A stretch of 62,199 nt of DNA, counting the filler. It is 7 parts of 7 records of this genome, joined end to end, with 100 filler letters (N's around TTAATTAATTAA, not from the genome) between each part and the next. Parts side by side here need not be neighbours in the genome. Positions count along the whole stretch, not along the records: positions 44,615 to 50,688 come from SRR2962707_2274; 6 more parts are not named here. One strand, written 5' to 3'. Below, piece by piece: positions 16,683 through 50,688 of this stretch. Below the pieces are notes generated by a model that saw only the letters and a program-made list of their open reading frames with translations, ran no database searches and was not told where the DNA came from. Position numbers and translations under genes: made by a program. Numbering within the stretch: the stretch's first letter is position 1; the number at the start of each line of letters is the position of its first letter.

Positions 16683-16782
16683 NNNNNNNNNNNNNNNNNN
16701 NNNNNNNNNNNNNNNNNNNNNNNNNNTTAATTAATTAANNNNNNNNNNNNNNNNNNNNNNNNNNNNNNNNNNNNNNNNNNNN
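16683..16782. other. Artificial contig spacer
   Basis: 44 N + TTAATTAATTAA (stops in all six frames) + 44 N. Base composition changes abruptly across it. Confidence 0.97.
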
Positions 16783-17734: not shown

Positions 17735-17736
17735 CT

Positions 17737-19572: not shown

Positions 19573-19637
19573 AATATGTATTCCAAATCTATAGGTCGAG
19601 ATATTCAGACCCGGCGGCACAAGTCCACCTTTTGCGG

Positions 19638-20822: not shown

Positions 20823-21397
20823 GCCCGCAGCATACGCGCGGTTGCACCCCAAATGTAATAGGGGCCGTAGGGAACAACGTAATAATGCCGCTGTTGTCCA
20901 CGCCAGCGGCGCGATTGCACCAGATAATTATCGGCATTCAACACATGGCCTAGCGGAACGGTAAACACTTCCTCGACCTCGCCGGGTTCGGGAATGATGT
21001 CAAAAACGTCTCTAACAAGGCCAACAACCGGGGTCACATGAAAGCTGGTGACGGTTTCATGGGCCGGGAGGGTTCCCAAAACCTCGACCAGCTCGGTCGG
21101 CAGCCCGATCTCTTCGCGGGCTTCGCGCAGGGCGGCGGCAATCACATCGGCATCGCCATCGTCCTGCTTGCCGCCCGGAAACGCGATTTGCCCCGGGTGA
21201 TGCTTCAAAGCTGAAGACCGCTTGGTCAGGATCAGTTCGAACTGTCCGTTTTTCTCAATGATCGGTGCAAGCACGCCAGCAGGCCGCAATTTGCGATCTT
21301 CCGGCAGCAACACACCCTTGTTCAAATCAAAATCGGACGACATGACACCGGTTTGCGCCAGCGCCGTCCGAAAACTGCTTATCTGGTCACTCAGCAC
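20801..21397 (-). CDS. CoA pyrophosphatase (NudL-like NUDIX)
   Basis: LTKRSSALKHHPGQIAFPGG..AALREAREEIG and IWGATA motifs. Start codon uncertain (GTG 21397). Confidence 0.9.
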   Translation of the reverse strand: MLSDQISSFRTALAQTGVMSSDFDLNKGVLLPEDRKLRPAGVLAPIIEKNGQFELILTKRSSALKHHPGQIAFPGGKQDDGDADVIAAALREAREEIGLPTELVEVLGTLPAHETVTSFHVTPVVGLVRDVFDIIPEPGEVEEVFTVPLGHVLNADNYLVQSRRWRGQQRHYYVVPYGPYYIWGATARMLRAWCERMT

Positions 21398-22373: not shown

Positions 22374-22450
22374 CAGACTTTCCTTACAGGCGGGCACTTG
22401 GCATACCGCGTCTATATAAGGGCAACAAGCCACACGAAAAGGGGTGTTAT

Positions 22451-22897
22451 ATGATGCGAAGATTCGGCGCGCCGCCATTGGCTGGAAAAAACTATACAAT
22501 TCGACCCGGTGCATACGCGATTTTGCCATTGAAAAACAGGTTCTTGATGACGGCGCAAATGTCGCCCCAAGTCGATGTACAGCTGCCCGGCGGCGGTATT
22601 GATCCCGGCGAATCCCCCCTACAGACACTTCACCGAGAGGTGATGGAGGAGATCGGCTGGTCGATCGCGTACCCCCGGCGGTTGGGCGCATTCAGACGGT
22701 TTGTTTATATGCCGGAATATGATCTTTGGGCCGAAAAACTGTGCCATGTCTATGTTGCACATCCGATCCGCCAAATCGCTGATCCGATTGAGCCTGATCA
22801 CACGACAGTTGTGCTGTCTGCCGATGAATCCCTGGCCGTATTGGGCAACGACGGTGACCGGTTATTTTTACAGCAATACTGCGCTAACGCCCTGTAA
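22451..22897 (+). CDS. NUDIX hydrolase
   Basis: Nudix box LPGGGIDPGESPLQTLHREVMEEIG. Confidence 0.88.
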   Translation: MMRRFGAPPLAGKNYTIRPGAYAILPLKNRFLMTAQMSPQVDVQLPGGGIDPGESPLQTLHREVMEEIGWSIAYPRRLGAFRRFVYMPEYDLWAEKLCHVYVAHPIRQIADPIEPDHTTVVLSADESLAVLGNDGDRLFLQQYCANAL

Positions 22898-24146
22898 ATT
22901 CGAATAATATGCCGGACACATCGTCGGGAAACTCATCATGACCCGAAAACTCTGACAACTTCCACAAGATCGCCTCGAGCAAGGGGGGGCCTGACACATC
23001 GCGCAGCGAAAAGAGCATTTTTGCAAGGCCCTCTTCCTCCATCATGGTGCCGTCAGGATCGGGGCATTCGGTTACCCCATCCGACAAGACCAACAACCGG
23101 TCGCCGGGCGATAAAGTTACCTCGAATTTTTCATATTTAACCTTGGCCATCAGTCCAACAGGGAAACCGCCAGGCCCATTTTGTTCAATTTCGCCATTGC
23201 GTCGCTGTACAACGGGGTAAGGGTGCCCCGCCTGACACATCAAAACATGGCCCGACTTCAAATCAACCTCTGCCAAAAGCAGCGTAAAATAATGTTCGGT
23301 TTCCATCTCGCTCAACACCAGATCGTTTAGTTCGGAAACGACCTCTTCAGGGGAACGCATCGTATATGCCCCATCGCTATCGCGGCTTAGGGCGATATTC
23401 TGGTCAGGAACGGCGGCAGATAAATACCCAGCCAAACGCGCCGTCATAAGCGCAGAGCTGATCCCATGGCCCGAAACATCAATGCCAAAAAGCCCCAGTT
23501 TTGTATCGTTAACCGGAAAGAAACCCACAAGATCCCCGCCCACATGACCGCTGGATCGCAGCAACAATGACAGCTTTCCGCCGTCAAAATCGCGGGTACG
23601 TTCGCGCACCAGCGATTGCTGCAGTTTCTTTGCCTCGATCAAATCCTTATCCAGCAGGTCATAAACGCGCTGCAATTCATCCAATGTATGGGTAATAATC
23701 AGGTTTTTATCCGTCAGCTGTCGCTGCATTTCCAAAATACGTTCGCCTGCCGCAATCCGGGCGCGCAGCTCGTGCACATCGACCGGTTTACTAAGAAAAT
23801 CATCGGCCCCACTGTCCAAGCCCTTGGCGACTTCGGCCTTTTCACTTTTCGAGGTCAGCAAGATAAAATAGCCGTATTGCGTTTCGGATAACGCACGGAA
23901 TTCTCGGCAAAATTCAAGGCCAGACATCCCTGGCATCACCCAATCGCTAAGCACGAGATCGGGAAGCCGGTCTTTGCACTTTTCGATGGCTTCGGGTCCC
24001 GATGCGGCCTCGACCACCGAAAAGCCCCATTTTTTCAATGACGCCCCCAGAATACGGCGCTGCAACTTGCTATCGTCCACCACCATCGCAAGCTGCATGA
24101 CGCCATCGCGCTGCGGCTGTTCTGAAATTTGTGGGTTATGGTGCAT
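22884..24146 (-). CDS. Response regulator receiver fused to a PP2C/SpoIIE phosphatase
   Basis: Receiver motifs VVDDS, DWVMP and KP; SpoIIE motifs GGD, DVSGHG, QAGHP, SDGVTE and DDVS. Confidence 0.92.
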   Translation of the reverse strand: MHHNPQISEQPQRDGVMQLAMVVDDSKLQRRILGASLKKWGFSVVEAASGPEAIEKCKDRLPDLVLSDWVMPGMSGLEFCREFRALSETQYGYFILLTSKSEKAEVAKGLDSGADDFLSKPVDVHELRARIAAGERILEMQRQLTDKNLIITHTLDELQRVYDLLDKDLIEAKKLQQSLVRERTRDFDGGKLSLLLRSSGHVGGDLVGFFPVNDTKLGLFGIDVSGHGISSALMTARLAGYLSAAVPDQNIALSRDSDGAYTMRSPEEVVSELNDLVLSEMETEHYFTLLLAEVDLKSGHVLMCQAGHPYPVVQRRNGEIEQNGPGGFPVGLMAKVKYEKFEVTLSPGDRLLVLSDGVTECPDPDGTMMEEEGLAKMLFSLRDVSGPPLLEAILWKLSEFSGHDEFPDDVSGILFEFTGR

Positions 24147-24298
24147 TAAAAATCGACCAATCAGAGGTTTGAAAGCACCGCACTACCGCACAGCTGTTTA
24201 ACAGCCCATGAAACCTAAAACTTGAACAAACAATCGCCGTTGGGCCACCTCCCGTTAATCCCCATCCTTTATCGTGATAAACGAAAGGAAGCTTCACC

Positions 24299-24631
24299 AT
24301 GATCGACTGGGCACAGGTCAACACCTTGCGTGATGACGTTGGAAAAGATGACTTTGCTGAAATCATCGACATTTTTATCGATGAGGTGGAGGACGTTATT
24401 GAAAAGCTGCGCAATGTGCCGGACCTGAACACGCTGGGCGACGATTTGCATTTTCTCAAGGGCAGCGCGCTGAACCTCGGGTTCTCGGCCTTTTCTGAAC
24501 AATGCCAACTGGGCGAGACGAATTCAGCCGCGGGGCATGCCGATCAGGTCGACATTTCCGCGATTATTGCTGCCTATGATTCATCGAAAACAAAATTCAT
24601 TGCCGAAATGCCCGACGCGCTGAACCCATGA
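24299..24631 (+). CDS. Hpt (histidine phosphotransfer) protein
   Basis: LHFLKGSALNLG motif. Confidence 0.9.
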   Translation: MIDWAQVNTLRDDVGKDDFAEIIDIFIDEVEDVIEKLRNVPDLNTLGDDLHFLKGSALNLGFSAFSEQCQLGETNSAAGHADQVDISAIIAAYDSSKTKFIAEMPDALNP

Positions 24632-24632
24632 A

Positions 24633-25865
24633 TCACAGTACAAACTGGGCCAGCGTTTCGTCATTAGTAATGTCGGTATAGGTAAATCCCGCGTCTTTCA
24701 GCTGGGACAGGAATGGGCCAAAACTGTCCGGGCTGCGGGTTTCGATCCCTATCAGAACCGAGCCAAAGTTACGGGCCGATTTCTTGAGGTATTCAAACCG
24801 GCAGATATCATCATCAGGCCCAAGGATGTTCAAGAACTCCTTTAGCGCACCGGGGCGCTGCGGCATGCGCAGGATGAAGTACTTTTTCACGCCAGAATAA
24901 CGCTGGGCACGTTCCTTAACCTCGGGCAGGCGTTCGAAATCAAAATTGCCACCAGACGCGACGCAAACAACGGTTTTGCCTTTGATTTGATCCGCGACAT
25001 CGCCCAGCGCCTCGATCGACAGGGCACCGGCTGGTTCCAGCACGATCCCTTCGACATTCAGCATTTCGATGATGGTCACACAAATGCGGTCTTCTGCCAG
25101 ATTTATCACGTTTGCCGGATCGACCCCCTTGAGGCGGTCAAAATTCCGCTGCCCGATCTTGGCCACGGCGGCACCGTCTACAAAGCTGTTGATCGGCGAA
25201 ATATCGACAGGCTCCCCTTTTGCCAACGCGCCGGCCAGACTTGGCGCGCCTTTGGGTTCGACAAAGGTGTAATCGCAGGATTTCCCGAAATAGCTGTAAA
25301 TGCCCGACGATAACCCGCCGCCCCCAACAGGCAAAATCACGCGATCGGGGACGCGGCCTAACTGCTGCTCAATCTCGACCGCAACAGACGCCTGGCCTTC
25401 GATCACATCATCATCATCGAAAGGCGACAGAAAATGCGCCCCTTCGCTGGCACAAAAATCCTGCGCCGCCGACAGGGTTTTGTCGAAATAGTCGCCCACC
25501 AGCCGCACCTCGATCTGGGCACCGCCAAACATCTTGGTTTTCTGAATTTTCTGCTGCGGCGTGGTCACCGGCATGAAAATCACACCTTTTACCCCGAAAT
25601 AGCTGCACATAAACGCGACGCCCTGCGCGTGATTGCCCGCACTTGCACACACAAACAGCGATTGCTCCGGGATAACCTTGCGCATCGCATTGAACGCACC
25701 GCGCAGCTTGTAGGACCGAACGGGGCTCAGGTCTTCACGCTTGAGCCATATGTCGGCCTCAAACTTTTCTGACAGATGTTCGTTGCGCATCAGCGGTGTC
25801 GGGGGGAACACATCGCGCATCGCTTTGGTCGCATTTTGCGCCAAGATCTTGAAATTATCGGTCAT
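24633..25865 (-). CDS. ilvA: Threonine ammonia-lyase (biosynthetic, short form)
   Basis: REDLSPVRSYKLRGA, ASAGNHAQG, VGGGGL and EPAGAL motifs, with ACT-like PQRPGAL. GAGG RBS precedes ATG 25865. Confidence 0.94.
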   Translation of the reverse strand: MTDNFKILAQNATKAMRDVFPPTPLMRNEHLSEKFEADIWLKREDLSPVRSYKLRGAFNAMRKVIPEQSLFVCASAGNHAQGVAFMCSYFGVKGVIFMPVTTPQQKIQKTKMFGGAQIEVRLVGDYFDKTLSAAQDFCASEGAHFLSPFDDDDVIEGQASVAVEIEQQLGRVPDRVILPVGGGGLSSGIYSYFGKSCDYTFVEPKGAPSLAGALAKGEPVDISPINSFVDGAAVAKIGQRNFDRLKGVDPANVINLAEDRICVTIIEMLNVEGIVLEPAGALSIEALGDVADQIKGKTVVCVASGGNFDFERLPEVKERAQRYSGVKKYFILRMPQRPGALKEFLNILGPDDDICRFEYLKKSARNFGSVLIGIETRSPDSFGPFLSQLKDAGFTYTDITNDETLAQFVL

Positions 25866-25989
25866 CAACGGCCTCATAAGGTGGATATCCTTCGATACGA
25901 CCCCAAACCGGGGCGGTCAACGCAGCCTTCAATCTTGCTCACGCCTGTAAAACCCGATACCTCGCGATGCAAACCGCAAAGGAAATAAC

Positions 25990-27210
25990 ATGTCCGCGCC
26001 CAAAAAAGTTGTGCTCGCCTATTCCGGTGGGCTTGATACGTCGATCATCCTGAAATGGCTGCAAACCGAATACGGTTGCGAGGTGGTGACATTTACCGCC
26101 GATCTTGGCCAAGGCGAAGAGCTGGAGCCAGCCCGCGCCAAAGCCGAAATGATGGGTGCCTCCGAGATTTATATCGAAGATGTTCGCGAAGAATTCGTGC
26201 GCGATTTCGTTTTCCCGATGTTCCGCGCCAACGCGTTGTACGAAGGGCTGTATCTGCTGGGCACATCCATCGCGCGGCCGCTGATTTCCAAGCGTCTGGT
26301 TGAAATTGCTGCCGAAACCGGTGCCGATGCTGTCGCCCACGGTGCGACCGGCAAGGGCAACGATCAGGTTCGTTTCGAACTGGCCGCCTATGCGTTGAAC
26401 CCCGACATCAAAGTGATCGCACCTTGGCGCGAATGGGATCTGACCAGCCGCACCAAACTGCTTGAATTCGCTGAGAAAAACCAAATTCCCGTTGCCAAAG
26501 ACAAACGTGGCGAAGCACCGTTCAGCGTTGATGCGAACCTGCTGCACACGTCATCCGAAGGCAAAGTGCTGGAAGACCCCGCAATTGATGCGCCAGAATA
26601 CGTCTATCAGCGCACCGTCGCACCGGAAGACGCGCCAGACACGCCCGAATACGTCGAGATCGGATTTGAAGCAGGCGACGCCGTCAGCATCAATGGCGAA
26701 GCAATGTCCCCCGCCACGATCCTGACCAAGCTGAACGAACTGGGCGGCAAACACGGCTGTGGCCGTCTTGATCTGGTCGAAGGTCGTTTTGTCGGGATGA
26801 AATCGCGCGGGATTTACGAGACCCCCGGCGGCACATTGCTGCTTGAAGCACACCGCGGAATCGAATCGATCACGCTGGACCGTGGCGCTATGCACCTGAA
26901 AGACGAATTGATGCCGCGCTATGCCGAACTGATCTATAACGGTTTCTGGTTCAGCCCCGAACGCACCATGTTGCAGGCCGCAATCGACGCGTCACAAACC
27001 CACGTCACCGGCACCGTGCGCCTGAAACTGTACAAGGGTCACGTGCGCACTGTTGGCCGTTGGTCTGATCATTCGCTCTATTCCGAAGCGCATGTGACGT
27101 TCGAAGACGACGCTGGCGCCTATGATCAAAAAGACGCCGCCGGCTTTATTCAGCTGAATGCCCTGCGTCTGAAGCTGCTGGCAGCCCGTGACAAACGCCT
27201 GAAAAGCTAA
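25990..27210 (+). CDS. argG: Argininosuccinate synthase
   Basis: [24 protein letters not shown] and [11 protein letters not shown] motifs. Confidence 0.97.
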
Positions 27211-27223
27211 GCGATAAAGTTAG

Positions 27224-27266
27224 AAAAAGGGCCCGGACAGAATACTATCTGTTCGGGCCCTTTTTT
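27224..27266. terminator. Bidirectional rho-independent terminator
   Basis: AAAAAGGGCCCGGACAG-aatactat-CTGTTCGGGCCCTTTTTT between convergent genes. Confidence 0.88.
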
Positions 27267-27298
27267 GTGGGCGATCAAGGTTACAGATCGGGCAAACA

Positions 27299-27991
27299 TT
27301 ACGTAACACGTTGATTATAAAGTATCTTATAGTGAGGAAGCGCTTCCTCAAGAAGCTGCTTTTCATCCCCAGTCAGCATCGGCAGCGGCCCCTCGGCACC
27401 CGCGAACCCCGTGCTTTGATGCACCGCGCCATACCAATGCGACGCCCAAACGCCATCCTCACTCCGGGTGCCGGCCGGCCATGACAACATCGCGGGATCA
27501 AAAGGCAGATCGATCGCCCTGCACAGCTTGCGCAACATGCCCTCGGGGTCGGCGCGAATATCGGCGGAATCGATAACCAAGCCGCCAATCTGATCATAAA
27601 GCGCGGTCTGCTGGCCAAATCCAATATCCGCAAAACTGGGTGCCTCGCGTTTCGCGGCATAGCTGGCAATCACGCGGGCCGGATGCCGGATCAGGTGAAT
27701 ATTCACGCAATCCTTGGCCCAGTCCATCGGAAACCCGTCCAGCATGTGATGGGACATATGTTTCATATAGATATGCGGGCTTCCCGGCTGTTGGCACAGC
27801 GCGCTCACCTTTTGCGGATCGGCTTCGTGCGCTGCCAGAATTTCGGCGCGCATCGGGTGATCCTCGCCTGTGGTGGCAAGATAGGCCGCATAAAACGGTT
27901 CATCCATTACCGAAAAGTCAGCGCGGTTGCCAAAGCTGTACATCATCGCCGTGCTTAGATTACGCGGGCCGGACCACATCGCGATACGCAT
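27299..27991 (-). CDS. Sulfotransferase-like (P-loop) protein of unknown function, coupled to an aminotransferase
   Basis: MRIAMWSGPRNLSTAMMYSF, DEPFY, KHM, LIRHP and GVWASHWY motifs. ATG overlaps the upstream TGA (TGATG). Confidence 0.8.
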   Translation of the reverse strand: MRIAMWSGPRNLSTAMMYSFGNRADFSVMDEPFYAAYLATTGEDHPMRAEILAAHEADPQKVSALCQQPGSPHIYMKHMSHHMLDGFPMDWAKDCVNIHLIRHPARVIASYAAKREAPSFADIGFGQQTALYDQIGGLVIDSADIRADPEGMLRKLCRAIDLPFDPAMLSWPAGTRSEDGVWASHWYGAVHQSTGFAGAEGPLPMLTGDEKQLLEEALPHYKILYNQRVT

Positions 27992-28899
27992 CAGGCGCAC
28001 TCCTGCTTGATCAAATCCTTATAAAGATCACGCAACCGCTGGGTCATCGGCCCCATTTCGCCCGTGCCAATTTGACGCCCATCAATGGATGCCACGGGCG
28101 TCTGCGCACCGAATGTACCGGTCAAAAACGCCTCGTCCGCGCCATACGTATCAACAAGTGAGAAATTGCGCTCAAAAACCGGAATGTCATTGGCGCGGCA
28201 CAAATCGATCACCTTTTGCCGCGTGATACCGTTCATACAATAATCCCCCGTGCTGGTCCAAACCGCCCCCTTGCGCACGATGAAAAAGTTACAGGCGTTG
28301 GTCGTGTTCACAAAACCATTGATATCCAGCATCAGCGCCTCGTCTGCGCCCGCTTTTTCAGCAGCGATACAGGCCAGAATGCAATTCAGTTTGGAATGGC
28401 TGTTCAGTTTGGGGTCTTGGGTCATCGGCAAACCACGCAGGTGGGGAACCGTCGCCAACCTGATTGGGCGCGGGATACTGGGGCGTGAATGCTCCATAAT
28501 AATCGTGATCGTCGGGCCGGATTGCGACAGTGACGGATGCTGGAAGGGGCGCGTTTTGACCCCGCGCGTGATCATCAAACGCGCATGGGCATCTGTGGTC
28601 ATCCCGTTGGATTTTTGCGTCTCTAACAGGGCGGAAATCAATGCTTCACGGGTCATTCCGATGTCGATATCAATGGCCTTTGCGGCCTCGAACAGACGAT
28701 CAAAATGTTCATCCATAAAGGCCCAGCGCCCATCGTACAGGCGCAGCCCTTCCCAGATGCCATCGCCCAACATGAACCCGCTGTCATACACGCTGACCAC
28801 CGCTTGCGCCTTGGGAACGATCTCGCCGTTCAGGTAAATCAGTATCTCATTGTTGCGCGCATCTTCTTCAGCTTGGTGTGTGGTCACGTGATCTTGCAT
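27991..28899 (-). CDS. Aminotransferase class IV (branched-chain/D-amino-acid aminotransferase-like)
   Basis: VSVYDSGFMLGDGIWEG, GITRQ and ADEAFLTGT motifs. Start at MQDHVTT with GGGGA RBS. Confidence 0.88.
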   Translation of the reverse strand: MQDHVTTHQAEEDARNNEILIYLNGEIVPKAQAVVSVYDSGFMLGDGIWEGLRLYDGRWAFMDEHFDRLFEAAKAIDIDIGMTREALISALLETQKSNGMTTDAHARLMITRGVKTRPFQHPSLSQSGPTITIIMEHSRPSIPRPIRLATVPHLRGLPMTQDPKLNSHSKLNCILACIAAEKAGADEALMLDINGFVNTTNACNFFIVRKGAVWTSTGDYCMNGITRQKVIDLCRANDIPVFERNFSLVDTYGADEAFLTGTFGAQTPVASIDGRQIGTGEMGPMTQRLRDLYKDLIKQECA

Positions 28900-29046
28900 C
28901 GTTAATCCCCTTTTCACCGCGACGCTAAGAACTTCGCCAGCCCGCGCCAAGCCTGAAATTGAATTCAACAGCGCGTGAGATGGCCAAGCTGTGTGTTGCG
29001 CAGCGCCGTGAACCAGGTCACCGTTTCCCAAAAGAGGAGACCCCCA

Positions 29047-29712
29047 ATGCGCATGTTAGCCAATTTCAAGCTAATCGCCCTGTCTGTCACCATTGGTTTG
29101 GGCCTAGTCTCCCAAAGCACCAGCGCAAAAGCCGCCGGAACCGAGACGCTTTTGGTCGCTGGCGGGTGCTTTTGGTGCGTCGAATCCGATTTCGAGAGCG
29201 TCAAAGGCGTGAAAGACGTCGTTTCCGGTTTTGCCGGTGGTTCGGTCAAGAACCCCACGTACAAGCAGGTCGTCGCAGGCGGCACCGGGCATTATGAAGC
29301 GGCGCAGATCCAATATGATCCGGCAGTGGTCAGCGCCGATCAACTGCTTGCTATGTTTTTCCGGTCGGTCGACCCGACAGATGCTGGCGGTCAGTTTTGT
29401 GATCGCGGCGACAGTTATCGCACAGCTATTTTTGCCGATGGGCCTGTCGAAAAAGCAGCCGCGCAGAAAGCCAAAGCAGATGCACAAGCCGCGTTGGGAA
29501 AAACAGTGGTGACACCGATTCTGGGTAAAGCCGCGTTTTATCCCGCCGACGATTATCACCAAAACTACTATAAAAGCAGCGAGCGGCTGGCCTTTAGCAG
29601 TGTCGGTCTGGGCGTCAAGAAATCCGAGGCCTACAAACGCTATCGCGACAGATGCGGCCGGGATCAGCGCGTGGAAAAATTATGGGGCGATGCGGCACCA
29701 TTTACGCATTAG
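29047..29712 (+). CDS. msrA: Periplasmic peptide methionine sulfoxide reductase A
   Basis: Signal peptide, AGGCFWCVE, GQFCDRG and YHQNY motifs; AGGAGA RBS. Confidence 0.92.
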   Translation: MRMLANFKLIALSVTIGLGLVSQSTSAKAAGTETLLVAGGCFWCVESDFESVKGVKDVVSGFAGGSVKNPTYKQVVAGGTGHYEAAQIQYDPAVVSADQLLAMFFRSVDPTDAGGQFCDRGDSYRTAIFADGPVEKAAAQKAKADAQAALGKTVVTPILGKAAFYPADDYHQNYYKSSERLAFSSVGLGVKKSEAYKRYRDRCGRDQRVEKLWGDAAPFTH

Positions 29713-30589
29713 GGTCATCGTCAAAATTGTGATCCTGAATTTCCTTTAGGTCCGGGATCACATCTGCCGTTCCCTGCCGCATCACCATCAATGCGGCGGC
29801 TTGCATGGCCAGGGTGATTGCGTCTGTCATGGTAAGGTGTCGATCAAGCGCCGCGATCAAATAGCCCGTAAAGGTGTCGCCGGCACCTGTCGTGTCGACC
29901 GCCTTGACCGCATAGGCAGGGAAAAACTGTTCGCTTTTCCCTGTGTTAGAGACCCATTTACAGCCGTTTTCACCCAAGGTGACAATGATATCATCGATAG
30001 GAAGCTGATCCAGCGGTTGCCCCAGCGCCTGAACCAGATCCGCCGCTTCGCCCTCGTTCAAGACCAGCAAATCGACATCATCCATCACGTCAGCGACGAC
30101 TTCTGCCTCGAACGGGGCGGCAGCATAAGCCACGCGAAGCCCTAGCGTTTTCGCGGTCCGGGCTGCAAATTCCTGACCCAGGGTTTCATTCTGCATCAGC
30201 AGGAAATCACCGGGCGACGCTTCGGACAGGGCTGCGCCGATGATCCTATCGTCAACCTCGTAGTTTGCCCCGGAAAGTAGAACGATATTATTCTCGCCAT
30301 CGTCGGCGACACAAATATTAGCGTGCCCCGTCGGCACGTTGATCATGTGTATATGCTGGGTCTCAACCCCATATTCCAACAGACGTTCAACCGCCCATTT
30401 CCCGTCAGGCCCAACCGCGCCGATATGCATGACACGGGTGCCAGCACGGGCGGCGGCGACCGACATATTGGCGCCCTTGCCACCTAAACCTTGGTTAAAA
30501 CCCTCGGCTGCGATCGTTTCGCCGGGTTTCGGCAAATGACGCAGATAATAGAAATTATCCGCGTTGATCGAGCCGAGGTTCCAGATCAT
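29702..30589 (-). CDS. rbsK: Ribokinase (PfkB family)
   Basis: GSINAD, GGKGAN, QNE and VDTTGAGDTF motifs. Confidence 0.85.
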   Translation of the reverse strand: MIWNLGSINADNFYYLRHLPKPGETIAAEGFNQGLGGKGANMSVAAARAGTRVMHIGAVGPDGKWAVERLLEYGVETQHIHMINVPTGHANICVADDGENNIVLLSGANYEVDDRIIGAALSEASPGDFLLMQNETLGQEFAARTAKTLGLRVAYAAAPFEAEVVADVMDDVDLLVLNEGEAADLVQALGQPLDQLPIDDIIVTLGENGCKWVSNTGKSEQFFPAYAVKAVDTTGAGDTFTGYLIAALDRHLTMTDAITLAMQAAALMVMRQGTADVIPDLKEIQDHNFDDDPNA

Positions 30590-32572
30590 TCGCCGACCTT
30601 ACACGCCGCCAAGATTGCCATGTTCAGAATATCATTTGCCGTCGATGTTGTTGAACAAATCTGGATCGATTTATCCAAGCCCGTCAAAATCGGGCCAATC
30701 ACCGTTGCACCCGCCATTTCCTGCATCAATTTAACCGAGATGCTTGCCGAATGCCGCGCCGGAACAACCAAAATATTCGCGGGCCCCGTCAACCGCGAGA
30801 ACGGATAGTTCTTTTGGCTTTCGGCATTCAGCGCGACATCAACGGTCATCTCGCCTTCGTATTCAAAGTTAACGCCGCGGGTATCAAGAACGTTTGGCGC
30901 GCGTTGCATTTTCTCGGCACGCTCGGAAATTGGATAGCCGAATGTGGAAAAGCTGACAAAAGCCACTCGGGGTTCAAGCCCCAGATGCCGCGCAACTTTG
31001 GCGCCGCTTTCAGCAATGTTCGCCAGATCATTTTCGTCGGGCCATTCATGCACCAATGTATCGCCGATAAACACGATCCGGCCTTTGTGCAGAACGGCGG
31101 TGATGCCGACCGCACCATGTTGGGCGTCAGCGTTGAAAACGTGGTTAATACGTTCGAGCACGTGGGCTGATTTGCGTGTCGCACCTGTTACCAGACCATC
31201 ACCATGCCCGTGCGCCAACATCAAAGCTGCAAAAACATGGCGGTCGCGCGCGGCAAGACGATGAATGTCTTTGCTGTCAAAACCCCGACGTTTCAGGCGG
31301 TCATATAGAAACGTTTTATATGCTTCCAAGTGGGTTGTATTGGCCGCATTCACGACCTCCAACTCGCGATAGGCATCTTCCAAACCGGCGGCGGCCAGTT
31401 TGGCTTTTACGTCATCGGCACGCCCGACAACCAACGCCTTGCCCAGACCGGACCGCTGATAGGTCACGGCCGCGCGCAGCACCTTGGGGTCGTCGCCTTC
31501 GGCAAAGATCATGCGCGCTTGGTTCGCACGGGCACGGGCGTTAATCCCGCGCAAGATGTTCGCCGTCGGGTCCATGCGCGACTTCAGGCTCAGCTCGTAG
31601 GCGTCCATGTCGATGATCGGGCGCCGCGCCACGCCAGTGTGCATACCGGCGCTGGCCACGGCGGGCGGAATGCGGTGGATCAAACGGGGGTCAAACGGCG
31701 TAGGGATGATGTAATCACGGCCAAAGCTCAGGTTTTTACCATAGGCCAACGCGACCTCGTCCGGCACATCCTCGCGCGCTAGGTTTGCCAACGCATGGGC
31801 GCAGGCGATCTTCATTTCGTCATTGATGGCGCGGGCGTGAATGTCCAACGCACCACGGAACAGATAGGGAAAGCCCAGCACGTTGTTCACTTGGTTCGGA
31901 TAGTCACTGCGACCCGTTGCAACGATGGCGTCAGGGCGAACTTCGTGTGCTTCTTCGGGTGTGATTTCGGGATCGGGGTTCGCCATGGCAAAGATCACCG
32001 GATTATCCGCCATGCTGGCAACCATCGCCGGGGTCACAGCCCCCTTGACCGACACACCCAAGAACACATCGGCGTCTTTCATCGCCTCTTCCAGGCTGCG
32101 CAGTTCAGTGGCGGCAGCATGGGCCGATTTCCACTGGTTCATACCTTCGGTACGGCCCTGATAAATAACGCCTTTGGTGTCACACATGATGCAGTTGTTA
32201 TGCTGTGCGCCCATCGCTTTCAGCAGCTCAAGACAGGCGATCCCGGCAGCCCCGGCACCGTTCAACACAATGCGCACGTCTTCGATTTTCTTGCCGGAAA
32301 TATGCAGCGCGTTCAGCAGACCGGCCGCACAAATCACCGCCGTCCCGTGCTGGTCATCGTGAAAGACGGGAATATCCATCTCTTCTTTCAGACGCTGTTC
32401 AATGATGAAACATTCCGGCGCCTTGATATCCTCAAGGTTAATGCCGCCAAAGGTCGGGCCCATCAATTTAACCGCATTGATGAACGCTTCGGGGTCTTCA
32501 GTATCCAGCTCGATATCGATCGAATTCACATCCGCGAACCGTTTGAACAGAACCGCCTTGCCTTCCATCACC
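30586..32572 (-). CDS. maeB: NADP-dependent malic enzyme with PTA domain, 5' end truncated
   Basis: INLEDI, FHDDQHGTA, GAGAAG and TGRSDYPNQVNN motifs, followed by a phosphotransacetylase-like domain (FAEG, EGEM). Confidence 0.95.
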
Positions 32573-44485: not shown

Positions 44486-44514
44486 GCAGGCAGGCAGGCA
44501 GGCAGGCAGGCAGG
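44486..44514 (+). repeat. (GCAG)n microsatellite at contig end
   Basis: About seven tandem GCAG units. Confidence 0.85.
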
Positions 44515-44614: not shown

Positions 44615-44745
44615 AACGAACCCGGGGGCGATTTCGAATTATTCGAAATCCAGAACTTGAAAAACGCCAGCTGACTGCTGGTTGGTCCCTTGGCAGGTGT
44701 AGCTTCAACGAGAAAAGAAAGAAAAAGAAACGAGCAGCTGAGGCG

Positions 44746-47700
44746 ATGAGCAGCTCCGCTGCTGCTGCTGCTGCTGCTCCTGACGCGGGGCCATCGCACC
44801 TGAGGCTGCTTTACAAAACTGGCCCACAGACCGACGAAAGTTGCCTCGTCGCCTCTGCTGGAGACATTCTCGTCCGTCTCTCTACAACAGGAGAATGGCA
44901 TCTTGTGATGCACATCAAAGACCAAGATAAGGAAAATGCGCCAACAGGGTACGTGCCCTGCACTTACGTCGAGGAATACCACCTGACGGATGTGGACTCC
45001 TCCGCGGATGATCGGTCCGTCCACAGCGCCGCTTCTCGAGAGGACGACTCCACGTCCGAGGCAGAATCCGTCGACGTGTCAGCCTCGACCAGAGACCTCA
45101 AGTCTGCAGCACAGCCATCAACGGCAGCTGCTGGTGTTGACAGTGCAAACTGTGCTCGAGAAGAAAACACGGCAGCAACGTCGACTGCAATGACAATAGT
45201 GAAACAAGAGAAACCCAAAGAAAAGCTCAAAAAAGTAAGGAAGCGGCGTCAACAGCCAAAGGGTGCGACCAAGCAAGAGCACGCTGCTGCAGTGAAGCTA
45301 GCCGTTTTAGCGGCATCGAAGAATCGCCAAAAAAATCAATCAGAACTCTCGCTTGCTACGGCCCAGCTCGCTTCTGCAGTCGCCAAGGCCCGTGAGCGAC
45401 GCACAATTGTATCGTATTTCGGGCTTCAAACCGCCTTACGAGCCGCGGTGGTTGCTGGAATGGCAGCGTCTGCCCCTGAAGCTGCTGCAGCCAGGGCGCT
45501 CGTGCATGAGCTTCAGCATGGCAACGCTGACCTGACTGGTGGCCAGCGTTACTGCATTGATTTTACGAATGTGCTCTCAGACACTGGAACTACGTTGGTG
45601 TATGCAGCCACAGATCAGCGCCTTGACGAACCTGTAGCTGTGAAATTTTGCCCGCGAACGGACGGTTTCAAACGAGAAGCTCATCGCTTTGTTGCAAAGC
45701 AATTGGCGGCCAGATTAAAGCGCAAGCGGAGGAAAACTGTCGCATATGCGGACGGTGCCGTGAACATTCGAGAGCTTTTGGACGCTAAAACGCTCGGGCC
45801 ATTTCCAAAAGCACTGCGGCGTGAAATGTTGTTGCAGCCGCCAGACCGCTGCCGACTTTCTCAGGCAATCGTGATGGACTTTGCTGCAGGCGGGAGCCTA
45901 CATAATTTGCTTGCCTCAACGACTTTTGCTGGACGGCAATTCGGGCGTAGCATGAACATTTTTTTTTCTGTTGCACAAGCGCTTTACAAGCTTCACGCCG
46001 CGCGTCGGGTACACGGGCAGGTCAACCCCAGAAAGGTTCTTCGAATTCGTCAAGACCACCTTGGTGGCGGCAACAGTGACGCTAATTTGCAGCTCGAAAC
46101 ACGCAAAAGCTTGTCATTGCGAGACTCTGTCACAGAGAGCAATTCAATTGATAGTATCAAGGAGCACAAGCACGATCTCGACAGTACAACTGGTTACGAT
46201 GATGGGGCCGATCACCGATTTGTGTTCAAGCTCTGTGGACTGAGTGCACAGACAAAGTTCGGCCATCCATTCCTGCACCCGCGAGCTGCTATTCAAACCT
46301 ACGACGCACCGGAGGTTGTCCGTGTGCTGTCATCGACATGTCAGACGAACCAAGTTCATGCGTCTGAAACACTCTGCGCACATCCAAGTCAGGATATCTG
46401 GGCTCTCGGATGTCTTCTGTTTCAACTTGGAACTGGACGCCCACTCTTCCGCCCAACAGGATTCGGATCCAATGACTTGGAGGACGAGGCTGACATCATG
46501 AGATTGTGCACCTGGACGAAACTTGAACAATCAGCTGCTTCCTTGTTTTTTCGTGGCAAGTTGGGGGTCACAGGTGACATAGATCGTCAAGAATGCAGCG
46601 AGTCTGATCGACAGGAAGTGTTGCGCTTAGCGCGAGCATGCTTGCAGGGGAGTGCGAGCGCTCGCCCAAACATCCGAGCCATTCTTCTGTCACCGTTGGC
46701 AGCCCGATTTCTGCCAGCATCTTTTGTGGATTTCATTGCCATTCAGCCCTTTGACGCTCCTGGCCTTGTGAGTGCACCCGCCAGCTGCAACACCCACTTT
46801 TTCATTTCGAGGCCGAGCTCCGCTTGTCGTTTACAGGTGAACAGCTTGGGGATTGCCCTTGAAGGGCTTGGCTGCTCTGTGTGGAAGCACACTGCGAACC
46901 AAGACTCCCATGTCAGTACAGCGATCGTGGACATAGGGCTGCGACCGAAGCAAGCTCGTGTTGGAGTTGCTGAGTCCGACATTTTTGTCCTATTCCTCCC
47001 CGCCGGAGCCGCTCACCGTGGGCTTTCTCGGGCCGCCTGTGTGTCGGAAGTGTTGTGGGCGTACGTAGCTCCATGCGTTGTGACTACCAGTGTCAAATTG
47101 TTGTTGGTGTGACCTTGCCTTACACTGTATCGTCTCTTGTCACTGTTGATGTAGATACGTCCTCAACAAAGCTACAGTTATTGTTGCCGAAAACCGTCAG
47201 GCCTTTATCGATTTCGAGCTCGACTTTTATGAGCGAGTCACACAACTGGACCCCGCAGAATTAGTATTGCAGATAGCACCGGCTCACAGCGCGGATCCGA
47301 GTGCTGGCAGTGAGGAAGGACCTGTCGCGCTGGCGAAGCGCGTCTTGCGTTTCTTTAAGGAGCGCACTGAAAGCTGTCCACCACTGTTTGCTGGGAAGTG
47401 GCCTGTTCAAATTGTTGCAGAGAATGTGCTGCGCAGGGCTTCGTCGCTTGCTGGTTGGGGCTTCTTACCGGTCCAACTGTCCAGTTTGAGCGCGCAAGCG
47501 ACTCCAGACGAATCACTGCCGGGACAGACTGAAATATCGATCAGTTTCCTGCATGATGGATCGTCTGCGGCCGATACAGCCTTGAAGGCTGTCGAGCGCC
47601 TCGCGAGTGACTTACACAGTATCATCGAAACCAACGATGAAGGCCCTGAAAACTCAACTGATCATGTCACGGTTGGTGCAGTAGATGTGTCAGTCACGCC

Positions 47701-50133
47701 TCTTCGCATCGTGGGTAATGACAATGAGGGCAACAACGTGAAGCTGTCTAGCGCTCAAAATATTGTCGTTGTTTTACATGACGACTTGACGCTATCTGCT
47801 GCCCTAGTTGCTCTTTCAAAATCGTACTTTTCTGGACATGTGTCTCGGCAACGCATTCAAATTGTGCTGCCTGTGCCCGAGTTGCCTAGTGTGGCCCCAG
47901 ATCACAAAGACCGCAATGGTCTGGATTGTGATGCCGCTATGGACGAGGCAATCAAACGCCTAGTTGATGCCAAGGCTGACGCTGGCGTCATTCGGTTGGT
48001 TGGCGACATAGGCCGGGTGCATCTCATGACTGAAGTATCCGATCCCTCGCGCGCATTGGTCAGCGACCCGTCCGTCGTTGTGTACGATGCACGGGACTAC
48101 CAGCTCGTACAATTGCTACATTCCTTGTTTCCCACTGCGAAAGGTGCACGCCTGCCAGCGAGCCGCAAGTCGGTCAAATCGCCGTTGATTTTGCCTGCAG
48201 ACCGAACACACGCGGTCGGCGCACAGGTCAATGAAGGTGAGGAGAAAACGCGACCAGTTGAAGAAGACCCTGAAGATAAGACTGCAGCAGAAGTTGCAGC
48301 GTCAAGTTCTGAGCGTTTGGGGGATGCACCTCAGCAAAGCGCAATGTCGGATGGCTCTAATTCAAAGTCGATGAAACCACCGCCACCTCCAGCCAAAAAA
48401 AAGGCCAATACCACCCCCATCACCGCTGGAGGAGCAGAGTGCGAGGCCAAACCGTCACAAATCACCAGCGAGGAACTTCCCGCGGTCCCTGTGCGCAAGA
48501 AGAAAGGCAAACTTGCCGATGCGGCTGCACAGCGAGGCCAAGTTTCGAGCACGCCAGCTGCTTCGCGCAGCTGTGAGTCACAGAGGTCAATGTTTATTCC
48601 CAAGCCATCTGCCGCTTTCTTCCAGGTAAGAAGCTGCTTTTGTGGTCAAGTGCTATTCATGTGACTGTCAAGAATGAAAATAGTTATTTGTTCAAGCGCT
48701 GGTTCAAGGAAGTCCGTTTTTACTGCTTGGTTTGCAGGTGATCGAAAAGCATATTTCCAAATTGAAACGTCCAGAAGAGTTTCAATACCTGCACATGCGC
48801 ACAGCTCTACGCGTTACGGTAGGGCGACCCACCCTGTCTCCATTTGAAAAGGCTGCGCTTAAGTATAGGCTGATGCAGTTCACGCCACAAGCTGTCCAAC
48901 GCATTGAGGCGTTTTTGACACGGAACGCAGCTTTCGAGCAAGAAGGCATCTTCCGCATTGCTCCCTCCCAAGACTTGCTGCAGGGAGCCCTCGCCACGAT
49001 GGAATTATGCTCTTCACGGGCACGTGTTCTCAGCGATGACGCGGCCGCGGACACTTTCCCGGAGTTCTTAGACATGCAGATTCCTTTGCCTTTTGGACGT
49101 GAGCGTGAGCTGCTCATCAACGTCGTCGCCAGCTGCTACAAGTGCGTTTTCGATCTCATTGTTTCGTTCTTGTATTGGTGTTGGCTGATACTGCTTGGTT
49201 TGTGGCTTGCTGATTTTACCTGTTTCGTGTCATTCTTGCATGACTTTTCTTGGCAGGTACTACTTTCGCCGCATGAGCATTCCACTCATTACTCCAGAAG
49301 TCTACACTGCCATGCGCTCTCTTGCGTCGGAAAGCAACATGGGCCGCGAAGAGTTTCTGGCAGGCCTGCCCCAAGTCCTTGTCGTGCTCCCTCCTCCCCA
49401 TCGCGTCTTACTAAGGCATACGCTGAGGGTCCTTCAAAGAGTGACTGAGTGTGGAGACGTAAATCGCATGTCCACAGATGCTGTTGCACGCATATTTGCG
49501 GCCGGTGTATTGCCCGTTGCGGAACTGGAGTCCGCACGTAGCCTCTCTGACATGCAGGATGACAACGACAAGCAAATCTGGATGTTGAAAATTCTCATAG
49601 ACGCACAAAGCAAGGTTGGTGTGCTCATCTGTGTTCGTCTGCCTGGATACGTTGTTACCTTAGTTGAGTGCCCACTCGCGTTGATTCTGCATGTTTAGGT
49701 GTTTGTTGAGATGGATATCCTGATTGCAGCACAACTTGCGGAGAACCCAAATGTGCGCTTAGCCAGTGATGATTCGATTAGTGAATGCTGCCACGATGTA
49801 AACCGCTGGCGGTTTTTCTTCCCGGAGGATGCGGCGGCTTCGATTGCAGTCTCAGGTTAGTTGTGTTTGGGGCTCCATGCATTCACTCACTCTGACTTGA
49901 AGCAGTTTTTAATGTGCTTGGTTTGTGTATTCTCTGGTGCATTTTTTTTCGACTGGTGGACACCACAATCATGTCCGCTTGTGACAGTCCCGTGGACGAA
50001 CAAGTCCAAAAAGTCAATATTCGAGCAAAAGTTAGCTGCGAACGATCAACGTAAAGCTGTCGCAAGTCAGTTCGACGAATTTTTGGCCACAGTTCGTGCC
50101 AAAATAGCGGAAGTTGAGTCCACGACGCCATAG
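44746..50133 (+). CDS. SH3-pseudokinase-TIR-RhoGAP multidomain protein (about 1616 aa, 6 exons)
   Basis: Exons 44746-47060, 47155-48625, 48738-49141, 49257-49614, 49699-49855 and 49988-50133, all GT-AG and phase-compatible. Motifs: GDIL..GEW..GYVPCTYVE; VAVKF, YDAPE, DIWALG; HFFIS..SDIFVLFL..CVSEVLWA; EGIFR, NRMS. Confidence 0.8.
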
Positions 50134-50688
50134 CCAATTTCGCTTCACCCCTCTCCTCTCCACCACGACCGGCGCCGCCGCCACCATCACGGCTTTTATA
50201 TTGTTCCTGAATATTACCATGTGAGAGTCCACCGAGGCGACACCTGTGACCGCCTGTGTGTATGTGCCAAACTACCACAAAATCAAACATGCAATATAGT
50301 TCTAAAAATTCACACCGACCCCCGTGTTGCAGCAGAGCAGCGTGACAGAGTACTGCAGTATCTTCATTCACCTCCGCCAACCCCTTGCGAAGCTCCTTTG
50401 ACGCCATTGGATTGAAAGAGAACGCTCTTTGTCAAAGGCGACACAGCAACGTTCCGAATGAGGAGCAATGTTTGATAAATACCGCCATGAGAAACAGCCA
50501 CAACAAAAAACCCAACCTCGCGAAAAATGCACATTCATTCGCCCACCTACTCGTCCCAGCCCACGGACCAGGTCATTCATGCATCAACCTTTTCAAGCAC
50601 ACGCCGCCTCCACCCACTGCTGACAGGCAGTCCACAATATTATATGGTTTCTTGCTCGCCAATTCTTCTTCTCGTATGAGATTGTAGA

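Follow-up and report, generated by a model that had tools for sequence, protein, structure and literature searches.

A single expressed protist gene encodes an SH3-like domain, a predicted pseudokinase, a probable, very divergent TIR-like domain and a RhoGAP domain in one protein, and joins known parts in a new architecture. It lies on the plus strand of the window, the 62,199-nucleotide stretch of DNA analysed here, in which separate contigs are strung together with N spacers. The gene occupies a contig of 6074 bases (44615-50688), and this 6-kb contig carries no neighbouring genes.

Gene structure and expression

The exon-intron model places six exons within 44746-50133, which splice into an ORF of 1616 aa whose sole stop is terminal. 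Exon 1 (44746..47060) begins with the ATG at 44746 and encodes aa 1-771, ending two bases into codon 772. Intron 1 (47061..47154, 94 nt) interrupts the TIR-like domain 3′ of helix C and is followed by exon 2 (47155..48625; aa 772-1262), intron 2 (48626..48737, 112 nt) and exon 3 (48738..49141; aa 1263-1396 plus two bases). Intron 3 (49142..49256, 115 nt) falls within the RhoGAP domain. The remainder consists of exon 4 (49257..49614), which ends at aa 1516, intron 4 (49615..49698, 84 nt), exon 5 (49699..49855), intron 5 (49856..49987, 132 nt) and exon 6 (49988..50133), with the stop codon at 50131-50133. All five introns have GT..AG ends. No in-frame stop is present 5′ of the ATG within the 6074-base contig, and the choice of this ATG is backed only by conservation from about residue 15 and by the identical start of a related sequence, P0004.

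One intron-less contig of 5080 nt, from the public run X2, maps to 44620-50231 in six pieces with 0 mismatches and omits exactly the five modelled intron stretches. Its first piece (44620-47060) covers exon 1, and its last continues past the stop codon to 50231, corresponding to the 3′ UTR. Run X2 was classed as RNA by guess, whereas the other public run, X1, is DNA; in X1, there are no exon joints at the locus and the introns are retained, so that the joint 47060>47155, for instance, is seen in the X2 contig and not in X1. Since the X2 contig spans the six exons without the five introns, the locus corresponds to one transcript and not to two genes. A first-pass annotation of this DNA had proposed the same 1616-aa ORF with five GT-AG introns, had suggested that its junctions be checked on transcripts, and had named split transcripts as the finding that would speak against a single gene. 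The splice model and the X2 contig (RNA by guess) confirm the ORF, and all five joints are present in one contig that spans all exons.

Conservation of the architecture

A relative from a seawater metagenome (P0005, on record L002) is 41% identical over exon 1 and has an identical module order, which is held in two independent records, L001 and L002. The whole architecture is thus shown to be conserved, as judged by sequence, in a relative at 41% identity. In this relative, the ORF runs uninterrupted where the window gene has introns 1, 3 and 4, and introns 2 and 5 have counterparts at their sites. The relative's intron at the shared intron 2 site measures 83 nt, and intron 5 has the same site and phase in both genes. 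In addition, exon 1 has an 81% match in P0004, which stems from a third source.

Identity between the window protein and the relative varies strongly along the chain. The SH3-like domain is the best-conserved module (77%), followed by the RhoGAP region (66%), the C-terminal tail (55%) and the kinase-like domain (52%). The TIR-like segment (24%) is as low as the linkers, and the middle region stands at 22%. The probable TIR-like module appears to be fast-evolving.

Kinase-like and RhoGAP domains

The protein-kinase-like domain (45556..46710; aa ~271-655) matches Pfam Pkinase with 38.1 bits, above the cut-off of 31.7, and the relative scores 43.4 bits. In alignments to RAD53, AAK1 and SRPK1, the segment H423-G-Q-V-N-P-R-K430 (46012..46035) replaces HRDLKPxN, with the catalytic Asp changed to Gln, the Lys to Asn and the Mg-binding Asn to Lys. 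HGQ is also found in P0005. At the place expected for DFG, C497-G-L (46234..46242) was read by eye and is kept in P0004 and P0005. The domain is accordingly predicted to be catalytically dead, and the pseudokinase of the first-pass annotation stands.

The RhoGAP domain (48885..49512; aa ~1312-1482, including intron 3) was recognised by Pfam with 48.2 bits on exon 4 of the window, and the relative's uninterrupted exon covers profile positions 1-147 of 148 with 65.5 bits. Seven PDB RhoGAP chains, including ARHGAP15 and chimaerins, match at E <= 1e-3 (E 7e-5 to 7e-4). Arg1335 (48954..48956), read from the window translation, is the arginine finger within E-G-I-F-R, as had been stated from the DNA alone. 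In the relative, E-G-I-F-R aligns with the G-L-Y-R finger of chimaerin, in a low-scoring stretch, and exon 3 of the window, the one that encodes the finger, had no Pfam match when scanned by itself. The conserved Asn of the chimaerin helix motif is Ala in the window; ARHGAP15 has Ser there. As Pfam was passed in both the window and the relative, the earlier call of a RhoGAP domain with an intact finger holds.

SH3-like domain and proline-rich linker

The SH3-like domain (44788..44985; aa 15-80) was found by a PDB-profile search and by ESM features. SH3 domains make up 12 of the 21 weak PDB-profile matches (E <= 10), the best being spectrin SH3 at E 0.014. ESM features gave a score of 0.91, with 174 of 256 features shared, and SH3 families appear in all the matches listed. 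The Pfam scan of this domain returned no SH3 match. Thus, the SH3 domain of the first-pass annotation tops the PDB-profile and language-model searches but fails Pfam, and SH3 homology of aa 15-80 is weakly to moderately supported.

Two motifs found by a regex scan lie far downstream in the proline-rich linker, namely PxxPxK at 48380..48397 (aa 1181-1186) and PxxPxR at 48479..48496 (aa 1214-1219). By the same scan, the proline-rich linker of the relative also contains two PxxPx[KR] motifs.

TIR-like domain

The TIR-like alpha/beta domain (46792..47239; aa ~683-800, including intron 1) is indicated by hhalign, PDB-profile and ESM searches. Against 22 TIR_2 domains, hhalign gave a score of 31.7 (probability 59.7%, P 8.9e-5), and 90 columns stay in register from strand A to strand D. 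Control scores were 20.1 for NDT, 12.8 for ThsB and 14.5 for receiver domains; none of 100 column shuffles reached 31.7 (mean 10.1, maximum 17.8), and the reversed query gave 12.1. In the same register, the window sequence alone scored 28.3 and the relative alone 21.1. When the whole protein was scanned against TIR_2 in sliding windows (n=43), five windows starting at aa 596-736 and spanning aa 596-875 scored 18-29, and the other 38 scored 6.8-12.8, so that the TIR-like segment is the sole peak.

Two features stand out in this alignment. The strand A motif H-F-F-I-S (46795..46809) falls on the F-I-S columns of TIR_2, where the reference domains have F in 19/22, I in 17/22 and S in 17/22. Glu768 (47047..47049), placed correctly by the first-pass annotation, falls on a column where 22/22 reference domains have Glu, and its counterpart is present in P0004 and P0005, that is, in 3/3 known sequences. 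In addition, bacterial TIRs represent 4 of the 9 PDB-profile matches (E 0.18-0.75), including the NAD(+) hydrolase AbTIR, and TIR_2 is named on 10 of the 30 ESM feature matches, the others being unnamed.

Other results run against this assignment. The TIR models of Pfam, PADLOC and NCBIfam gave no match even at E <= 10, and a self-built TIR_2 HMM gave 2.9 and 3.6 bits, scores reached by 14 and 9 of 2000 shuffles. The hhalign probability is no higher than about 60%, the segment shares just 24% identity between the two species, and the ESM search found 152 shared features, under the 170 typical for true family members. The Trp four residues upstream of the Glu in 12/22 reference TIR_2 domains is Ala in the window. 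Modelling with AlphaFold followed by Foldseek, as had been suggested, yielded two models with mean pLDDT of 44.3 and 46.2, too poor to judge the fold; Foldseek and VIA-align on these low-confidence models found no TIR (best Z 4.2). In the relative, the top Pfam lead is the nucleoside 2-deoxyribosyltransferase family PF05014 (E 0.0016; 19 bits, below the cut-off of 28.8). A phmmer search with the relative's TIR-like and middle regions against 1.84 billion representatives recovered the relative itself and one repeat protein, judged spurious. Thus, of the TIR domain first annotated, the TIR_2 profile match and the Glu on the 22/22 column stand, but no curated HMM recognises it and the fold is unconfirmed. 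These sequence comparisons lend moderate support to a divergent TIR-like domain in which Glu768 occupies the invariant Glu column.

The middle region that follows (47240..48139; aa ~801-1100) is predicted to be alpha/beta by a low-confidence model. It had no Pfam match and reached only 9.7-11.3 in hhalign against TIR_2, ThsB, NDT and receiver domains.

Proposed function

The protein is probably a regulated, cytosolic RhoGAP scaffold of a marine eukaryote with SH3-like, dead kinase-like and divergent TIR-like modules. From the N to the C terminus, it would consist of the SH3-like domain, a basic disordered linker, the dead kinase-like domain, the TIR-like domain, an alpha/beta region of no known family, the proline-rich linker with its two PxxPx[KR] motifs, the RhoGAP domain and a conserved C-terminal tail. 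We infer SH3 and TIR homology as well as every functional step. RhoGAP is the only module with clear catalytic credentials and, judging from its family, would turn off a Rho-family GTPase and thereby act on actin. The remaining modules may set the place and timing of this action. For instance, the SH3-like domain could bind proline motifs, possibly those of its own linker; the pseudokinase could be a docking or allosteric module; and the TIR-like domain may serve for homotypic association or regulation, and might also cleave NAD+.

Alternative explanations

It is hardly credible that the fusion is an artefact in which two or more genes were merged by mis-assembly or by the splicing model. The contig is short (6074 bases), it comes from a mixed assembly with bacterial contigs, and the RNA label of X2 is a guess. 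Nevertheless, the contig of an independent run joins all exons with 0 mismatches and the five GT..AG introns gone, a metagenome contig from the relative (41% identity; records L001 and L002) has the same module order on one strand, and a third source supplied P0004, with an 81% match to exon 1; the idea is close to refuted. A different question is whether 46792-47239 is instead a non-TIR Rossmann-like or flavodoxin-like module (e.g., NDT-related) or a lineage-specific alpha/beta spacer, its TIR_2 likeness reflecting no more than a shared beta-alpha pattern. The curated HMM libraries and fold searches without a TIR agree with this, as do the sole Pfam leads, which come from the relative, namely PF05014 (E 0.0016) and PF15891 (E 0.014). 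The hhalign score of 20.1 was obtained with three NDT-family sequences, over strands C-D, and TIR_2 and NDT profiles cross-match at 25.4, which leaves 31.7 little above a known cross-family level. However, the TIR_2 match is in register from strand A to strand D and includes F-I-S, which is absent from NDT in the alignment; the window alone scores 28.3 against TIR_2 and 12.8 against NDT; the PDB-profile and ESM leads are TIR, not NDT; and the NDT reference set is tiny, with one of its three sequences below the Pfam cut-off. A non-TIR module is an unlikely alternative.

The TIR-like domain could also be an active NADase or cyclase that acts through Glu768 and couples NAD-derived signalling or NAD depletion to Rho/actin control, for instance, in prey or pathogen sensing. 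The position of Glu768 on a column occupied by Glu in all 22 TIR_2 domains, its retention in the three known sequences and the presence of AbTIR among the closest weak PDB matches are consistent with such an activity. By contrast, TIR homology itself is only moderately supported, the W-x-x-x-E pattern is without its Trp, and a lone conserved helix Glu in three sequences is a weak sign of catalysis. The 24% identity between orthologs, at the level of linkers, looks unlike a tightly constrained enzyme. Taken together, an active enzyme seems rather improbable, and a RhoGAP scaffold with a divergent TIR-like module is the reading retained here.

Comparison with known systems

NADase TIRs such as SARM1, plant TNLs and Thoeris ThsB use the Glu of this column for catalysis. 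Compared with TIR_2/TIR NADases (AbTIR, the Brucella TIR protein, SARM1, TNL and ThsB), the TIR-like domain has the same predicted strand-helix order from strand A to helix D and shares the F-I-S motif of strand A, as well as a Glu where helix C has its invariant one. Its weak PDB-sequence matches are headed by AbTIR and the Brucella TIR protein. The domain differs in matching no curated HMM and in having no Trp four residues before the Glu, and its 31.7 lies far under the family level, as TIR_2 and ThsB_TIR profiles score 99.6 with each other. With regard to the NDT-like families PF05014 and PF15891, the relative's sub-threshold leads cover strand C, helix C (with the Glu) and strand D, whereas the window's own sequence has no NDT lead and the N-terminal half of the domain matches TIR, not NDT.

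SH3-RhoGAP combinations occur in animals, and an SH3-type module and a proline-rich linker in one chain allow autoinhibition or recruitment. The window protein shares this pairing with the SH3-containing RhoGAPs of animals and fungi (ARHGAP members, chimaerins), as well as the RhoGAP fold and the arginine finger. Unlike them, it has no PH, BAR, C1 or SH2 domain, with a pseudokinase and a TIR-like domain instead.

Choanoflagellate 'Kinase TIRs' combine Pkinase and TIR without a transmembrane segment, their classes being defined by Pfam Pkinase and TIR/TIR_2 matches, and have been proposed, untested, as a short-cut in innate-immune-like signalling (Richter et al. 2018, eLife, PMC6040629). Going by the description given there, both are cytosolic protist proteins in which a protein-kinase fold adjoins a TIR or TIR-like domain, whereas the window protein matches no TIR model, has a kinase without the catalytic Asp and carries the additional SH3-like and RhoGAP domains.

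Gene structure and transcript support

The gene lies on the plus strand at window positions 44746-50133, in a contig of 6074 bases (44615-50688) that is one of the seven in the window. Reading of the region together with scripted splice-site testing gives exons at 44746-47060, 47155-48625, 48738-49141, 49257-49614, 49699-49855 and 49988-50133, separated by five introns of 94, 112, 115, 84 and 132 nt, all of the GT..AG type. The spliced product is a single ORF of 1616 aa, in which the codon at 47047-47049 specifies Glu768 (E768) and that at 48954-48956 specifies R1335, the arginine of an E-G-I-F-R motif. The coordinates in the first-pass annotation, which had proposed a single protist gene fusing SH3, pseudokinase, TIR and RhoGAP modules, are correct, including those of the Glu codon and of the E-G-I-F-R motif.

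Four public runs are listed, three of which contain the gene stretch or part of it, and three runs were aligned on 44620-50680. One of them, X2, has been labelled as RNA by a guess, and none of the runs that contain the stretch is recorded as RNA. In X2, one contig of 5080 letters matches 44620-50231 in six pieces, with no other letters, and omits precisely the five proposed introns, while the DNA run X1 covers 44620-50680 without joints. A locus that is intron-less in X2 and intron-containing in X1 follows the pattern expected of a spliced mRNA, and, since the X2 contig covers all modules, the locus corresponds to one transcript. Thus, the proposal of one spliced gene is supported at its junctions, and the reading in which two genes or a mis-assembly produce the apparent fusion is dropped because a single X2 contig spans all the exons.

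In X1, three exonic sites carry small indels relative to the window (1, 2 and 1 bases missing at 44903, 45959 and 48395, respectively), and these would alter the reading frame. At all three sites, the X2 contig has the sequence of the window, so the frame of the window is the credible one, and the indels are probably sequencing errors in the X1 contigs rather than alleles. The ATG is a less secure point of the model, as the contig has no in-frame stop upstream of it. This start is favored by P0004, a homologue 81% identical to the window protein, which begins at the same Met, and by P0005, a more distant relative, with which conservation starts near residue 15. A tblastn search found no paralogues within the window, and Rfam gave no matches over its whole length.

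Composition of the window

Bacterial and eukaryotic contigs occur together in the assembly from which the window derives. The first contig (1-16682) is bacterial and not from the protist: its GC content is 0.343, 89% of its bases lie in ORFs of at least 200 aa, and it carries side by side a SusC-like TonB-dependent receptor, a GH2 glycosidase and a sugar transporter, the GH2 gene having 99% protein identity to Galbibacter orientalis DSM 19592. The second (16783-32572) is also ORF-dense, with a GC content of 0.557, 96% of its bases in long ORFs and an ABC transporter, and probably comes from another bacterium. Contigs 3-7 have a GC content of 0.51-0.525 and a lower ORF density, resembling the gene studied.

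The joints between contigs (16683-16782 and those from 32573, 39073, 44515, 50689 and 56639) consist of 44 N, a 12-base AT linker and 44 N. This linker has stops in all frames; no ORFs or repeats are to be read across the joints. Directly before one of these spacers, at 44490-44514, a (CAGG)n-type microsatellite closes the preceding contig. At the other end of the gene's contig (50643-50680), the summed depth of the X1 contigs climbs to about 8200 from about 48, with numerous contigs ending loose at 50643. This high-copy sequence is probably repetitive and the reason why the assembly broke off.

Relatives and conservation of the architecture

A word-seeded search with exon 1 retrieves three proteins among 8000 candidates, namely the window's own ORF, P0004 (803 aa, 81% identity) and P0005 (1168 aa, 41% identity, from seawater metagenome records). 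No longer or fused homologue of exon 1 was found among 7998 candidates, and so far just three members of the family are known.

P0005 is encoded on two metagenome contigs, L001 and L002. Its locus at 7682-12217 of L002 contains just two introns, whose sites are those of introns 2 and 5 in the window. The ORF of P0005 is unbroken at the intron 1 site and stops exactly at the end of exon 2, where an 83-nt GT..AG intron follows at the same site as intron 2 of the window. A single uninterrupted exon then codes for the entire RhoGAP region, reading through the positions at which the window has introns 3 and 4, and is followed by an intron at the site and in the phase of intron 5 and by a conserved last exon. 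Consequently, introns 1, 3 and 4 were either gained in the lineage of the window or lost in the other. By this comparison of sequences, the splicing predicted in the window is independently confirmed at three of the five junctions, and the predicted architecture as a whole is conserved at 41% identity.

Conservation is distributed unevenly along the protein. Identity to the relative is 77% in the SH3-like domain, 58% in the helical region before the kinase, 52% in the kinase-like domain, 66% in the RhoGAP region and 55% in the C-terminal tail, and it is 24% in the TIR-like domain, 22% in the middle region and 24-27% in the linkers. The RhoGAP, SH3-like and kinase-like modules are highly conserved.

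The RhoGAP, kinase-like and SH3-like modules

RhoGAP is the only module with intact catalytic hallmarks. Exon 4 of the window reaches 48.2 bits against Pfam PF00620 (cut-off 24.5) over profile positions 63-144, and the unsplit exon of the relative reaches 65.5 bits over positions 1-147 of 148. In addition, seven RhoGAP chains from the PDB match at E <= 1e-3. The arginine finger (G-x-F/Y-R) is found in the relative as E-G-V-F-R, which aligns, within a low-scoring stretch, with E-G-L-Y-R of chimaerin, and the E-G-I-F-R of the window stands at the same place. The earlier identification of a RhoGAP domain with an intact finger is borne out by both the Pfam match and this alignment.

The kinase-like domain is also recognized by Pfam (PF00069, Pkinase, cut-off 31.7), with 38.1 bits for exon 1 of the window, 43.4 for P0005 and 35.2 for P0004. 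Its catalytic loop, H-G-Q-V-N-P-R-K, was aligned with H-R-D-L-K-P-D-N of RAD53 and H-T-D-I-K-P-E-N of SRPK1, and AAK1 was also compared. Judged by the H-R-D-L-K-P-x-N pattern, neither the catalytic Asp nor the Lys nor the Mg-binding Asn is retained, in the window or in the relative. As the Asp of HRD and the Mg-binding Asn are missing, the domain is classed as kinase-like and predicted to be inactive; C-G-L stands at the position expected for DFG, as read by eye only. As a prediction, the pseudokinase is well founded.

For the SH3-like domain, Pfam gives no SH3 match (PF00018, PF07653 and PF14604): the 71-aa segment, taken from the window or from the relative, has none at E <= 10, and exon 1 has none at E <= 1. 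Nevertheless, the core pattern of such domains is present (hydrophobic-G-D, Trp, G-x-x-P-x-x-Y-V), and a profile made from three sequences over aa 15-85 has 21 matches at E <= 10 among PDB sequences, 12 of which are SH3 domains, including spectrin (E 0.014), FRK (0.085) and HCK (near 1). These matches align over the G-D and G-Y-V-P-x-x-Y-V parts; of the other nine, seven are homing-endonuclease variants. In the ESM language-model atlas, where only named clusters were considered, SH3 families are the only ones listed (best 0.91, with 174 of 256 features shared). The PDB-profile and language-model lines agree, each being weak alone, and the segment is likely to be an SH3 domain. In this respect, the initial assignment stands on these two leads. 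Two PxxPx[KR] motifs lie in the linker that precedes the RhoGAP, in the window as well as in the relative, and a predicted complex of the SH3-like domain with this Pro-rich linker scores 0.03, the mark being 0.34.

The TIR-like domain and the middle region

Curated families do not recognize the segment at 46792-47239: TIR-type Pfam models of the STIR superfamily (PF01582 and PF13676) find nothing at E <= 1 to 10, whether in the pieces of the window, in P0004 or in P0005, and the TIR-type models of PADLOC and NCBIfam find nothing at E <= 10. The window domain is split by intron 1 and was therefore scanned as pieces, and the unsplit domain of the relative has no match either. The sole Pfam leads are nucleoside 2-deoxyribosyltransferase families, below their cut-offs and in the relative only (E 0.0016 and 0.014). 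An exhaustive phmmer search with the TIR-like and middle regions of the relative against 1.84 billion representatives returns only the query itself and P0006, a bacterial protein whose near-identical tandem repeats are matched in six stretches and which was rejected as spurious. A word-seeded profile search with the TIR-like alignment finds none of 7161 candidates at E <= 10.

AlphaFold models of aa 625-1010 and 631-791 of the relative have mean pLDDT values of 44.3 and 46.2, both too poor for judging the flavodoxin-like TIR fold, a five-stranded parallel sheet with helices A-E; the order beta-alpha-beta-(loop)-beta-alpha-beta-alpha fits in only one of these two low-confidence models. With Foldseek, the 386-aa model (pLDDT 44.3) finds in the PDB only two-domain Rossmann-like proteins with TM near 0.18; plant RPP1 appears there at ranks 4 and 6 and is not counted as support. 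The 161-aa model (pLDDT 46.2) gives nothing at E <= 0.001 with Foldseek against the PDB, and in a wide VIA-align search its best Z is 4.2, for periplasmic-binding-protein-like rows, with no TIR among the matches listed. HMMER and AlphaFold with Foldseek had been suggested as a check in the first-pass annotation; when run, the Pfam HMMs carry Pkinase and RhoGAP past their cut-offs, and neither curated HMMs nor Foldseek on the low-confidence models yield a TIR.

It is at the level of profiles that a probable relation to TIR domains emerges. A four-row profile has nine matches at E <= 10 in the PDB, four of them bacterial TIR domains with E 0.18-0.75 (two chains each from AbTIR and a Brucella-type TIR protein), which align over strand A, helix A and strand B. 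In the ESM atlas, 10 of 30 feature matches carry TIR_2 and the rest are unnamed (0.92, with only 152 shared features). For hhalign, the query alignment combined the spliced window domain, the relative and a partial P0004. The references were 22 TIR_2 domains above the Pfam cut-off, from 16 of 151 Flavobacteriales genomes reached through a bacterial contig of the window; the controls were three NDT, six ThsB_TIR and 20 receiver domains. The query scores 31.7 against TIR_2 (P 8.9e-5, probability 59.7%, 90 columns, strands A-D), which is only slightly above a known cross-family level, as the TIR_2 and NDT references score 25.4 with each other (TIR_2 and ThsB_TIR, 99.6). The controls give 20.1 (NDT), 12.8 (ThsB) and 14.5 (receiver). 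None of 100 column shuffles reaches 31.7 (mean 10.1, sd 2.0, maximum 17.8), and the reversed query scores 12.1. In the same register, the window sequence alone scores 28.3 and the relative alone 21.1. When 43 windows of 140 aa are taken along the protein, only five, spanning aa 596-875, score 18.2-29.4, and the other 38 score 6.8-12.8. In direct comparison of the TIR_2 HMM with sequences, the scores are 2.9 and 3.6 bits, and 14 and 9 of 2000 shuffles, respectively, score at least as high.

In this alignment, E768 corresponds to the catalytic Glu position of helix C: its column is Glu in all 22 reference TIR_2 domains, and also in P0004 and P0005. H-F-F-I-S is aligned with the F-I-S columns, in which 19 of the 22 have F, 17 have I and 17 have S. 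Four residues before the Glu, 12 of the 22 references have Trp and the window domain has Ala. Homology to TIR_2 at the profile level, over the core of the domain and in register, is supported at a modest level, and the segment is rather more probably than otherwise a TIR-superfamily domain, although an active NADase seems unlikely. The proposed TIR domain with a catalytic Glu consequently survives as an in-register profile-profile match that places Glu768 on the invariant Glu column, without a match to any curated HMM.

The middle region (47240-48139, aa ~801-1100) is likewise predicted to be alpha/beta; it is about 300 aa long, is 22% identical to that of the ortholog and matches no Pfam family. 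Its aa ~890-1100 show no likeness to TIR_2, ThsB, NDT, receiver domains or the first domain, with hhalign scores of 9.7-13.2.

Proposed mode of action

The most economical reading of this protein is a regulated RhoGAP, which, judging from its family, would speed GTP hydrolysis on a Rho-family GTPase. An SH3-proline interaction may set the activity or the location of the GAP, and the pseudokinase could do so as a scaffold. The fast-evolving TIR-like module may likewise act on the GAP, perhaps by mediating homotypic association or sensing a ligand. We infer all of these steps.

A coupling of NAD-derived signalling to actin is also possible. A 2026 preprint (10.64898/2026.04.20.719644) reports that TIRs from several groups of protists have NADase activity that depends on the Glu, which adds some plausibility to such a coupling; the low conservation of the TIR-like segment calls for caution. 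In its strongest form, a competent, highly divergent TIR NADase would share one polypeptide with RhoGAP, pseudokinase and SH3, and TIR oligomerization or NAD-derived products would directly gate Rho-GTPase inactivation and actin remodelling. We regard this as improbable. If true, TIR-gated Rho inactivation might operate, for example, in the phagocytosis of bacteria, as a TIR output unlike the known cell-death, adaptor and Thoeris-type routes, and the domain would represent a new TIR subfamily that current HMM libraries cannot see.

Significance and comparison with known systems

Taken together, the first-pass observation holds and its interpretation stands in part: the fusion is clean, expressed, conserved and unusual, with a TIR assignment of moderate strength at the profile level. 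The first-pass annotation had considered the architecture unfamiliar from model organisms. In the full-text literature searched, the combination of TIR domain, RhoGAP and pseudokinase is not described, only unrelated papers being retrieved, TIR_2 with RhoGAP likewise leads only to unrelated papers, and broader literature on protists and TIR architectures has nothing on the present one. The parts are all of known kinds; as far as searched, their combination and the HMM-invisible TIR-like domain are new.

A fusion of TIR-like and RhoGAP domains would suggest a connection of TIR signalling to the cytoskeleton, one undescribed in the literature searched. In addition, divergent eukaryotic TIR-like domains escape current HMM libraries; the one in the window surfaced only through profile-profile comparison. 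New domain shuffles are common in protists, and this, together with the moderate TIR assignment and the three-member family, limits the weight of the finding. TIR domains are now regarded as ancient immune modules that process NAD, and reports of active protist TIRs are very recent (10.64898/2026.04.20.719644). The nearest published architecture found is that of the choanoflagellate 'Kinase TIRs', which, as described by Richter et al. 2018, combine Pkinase and TIR with no membrane span.
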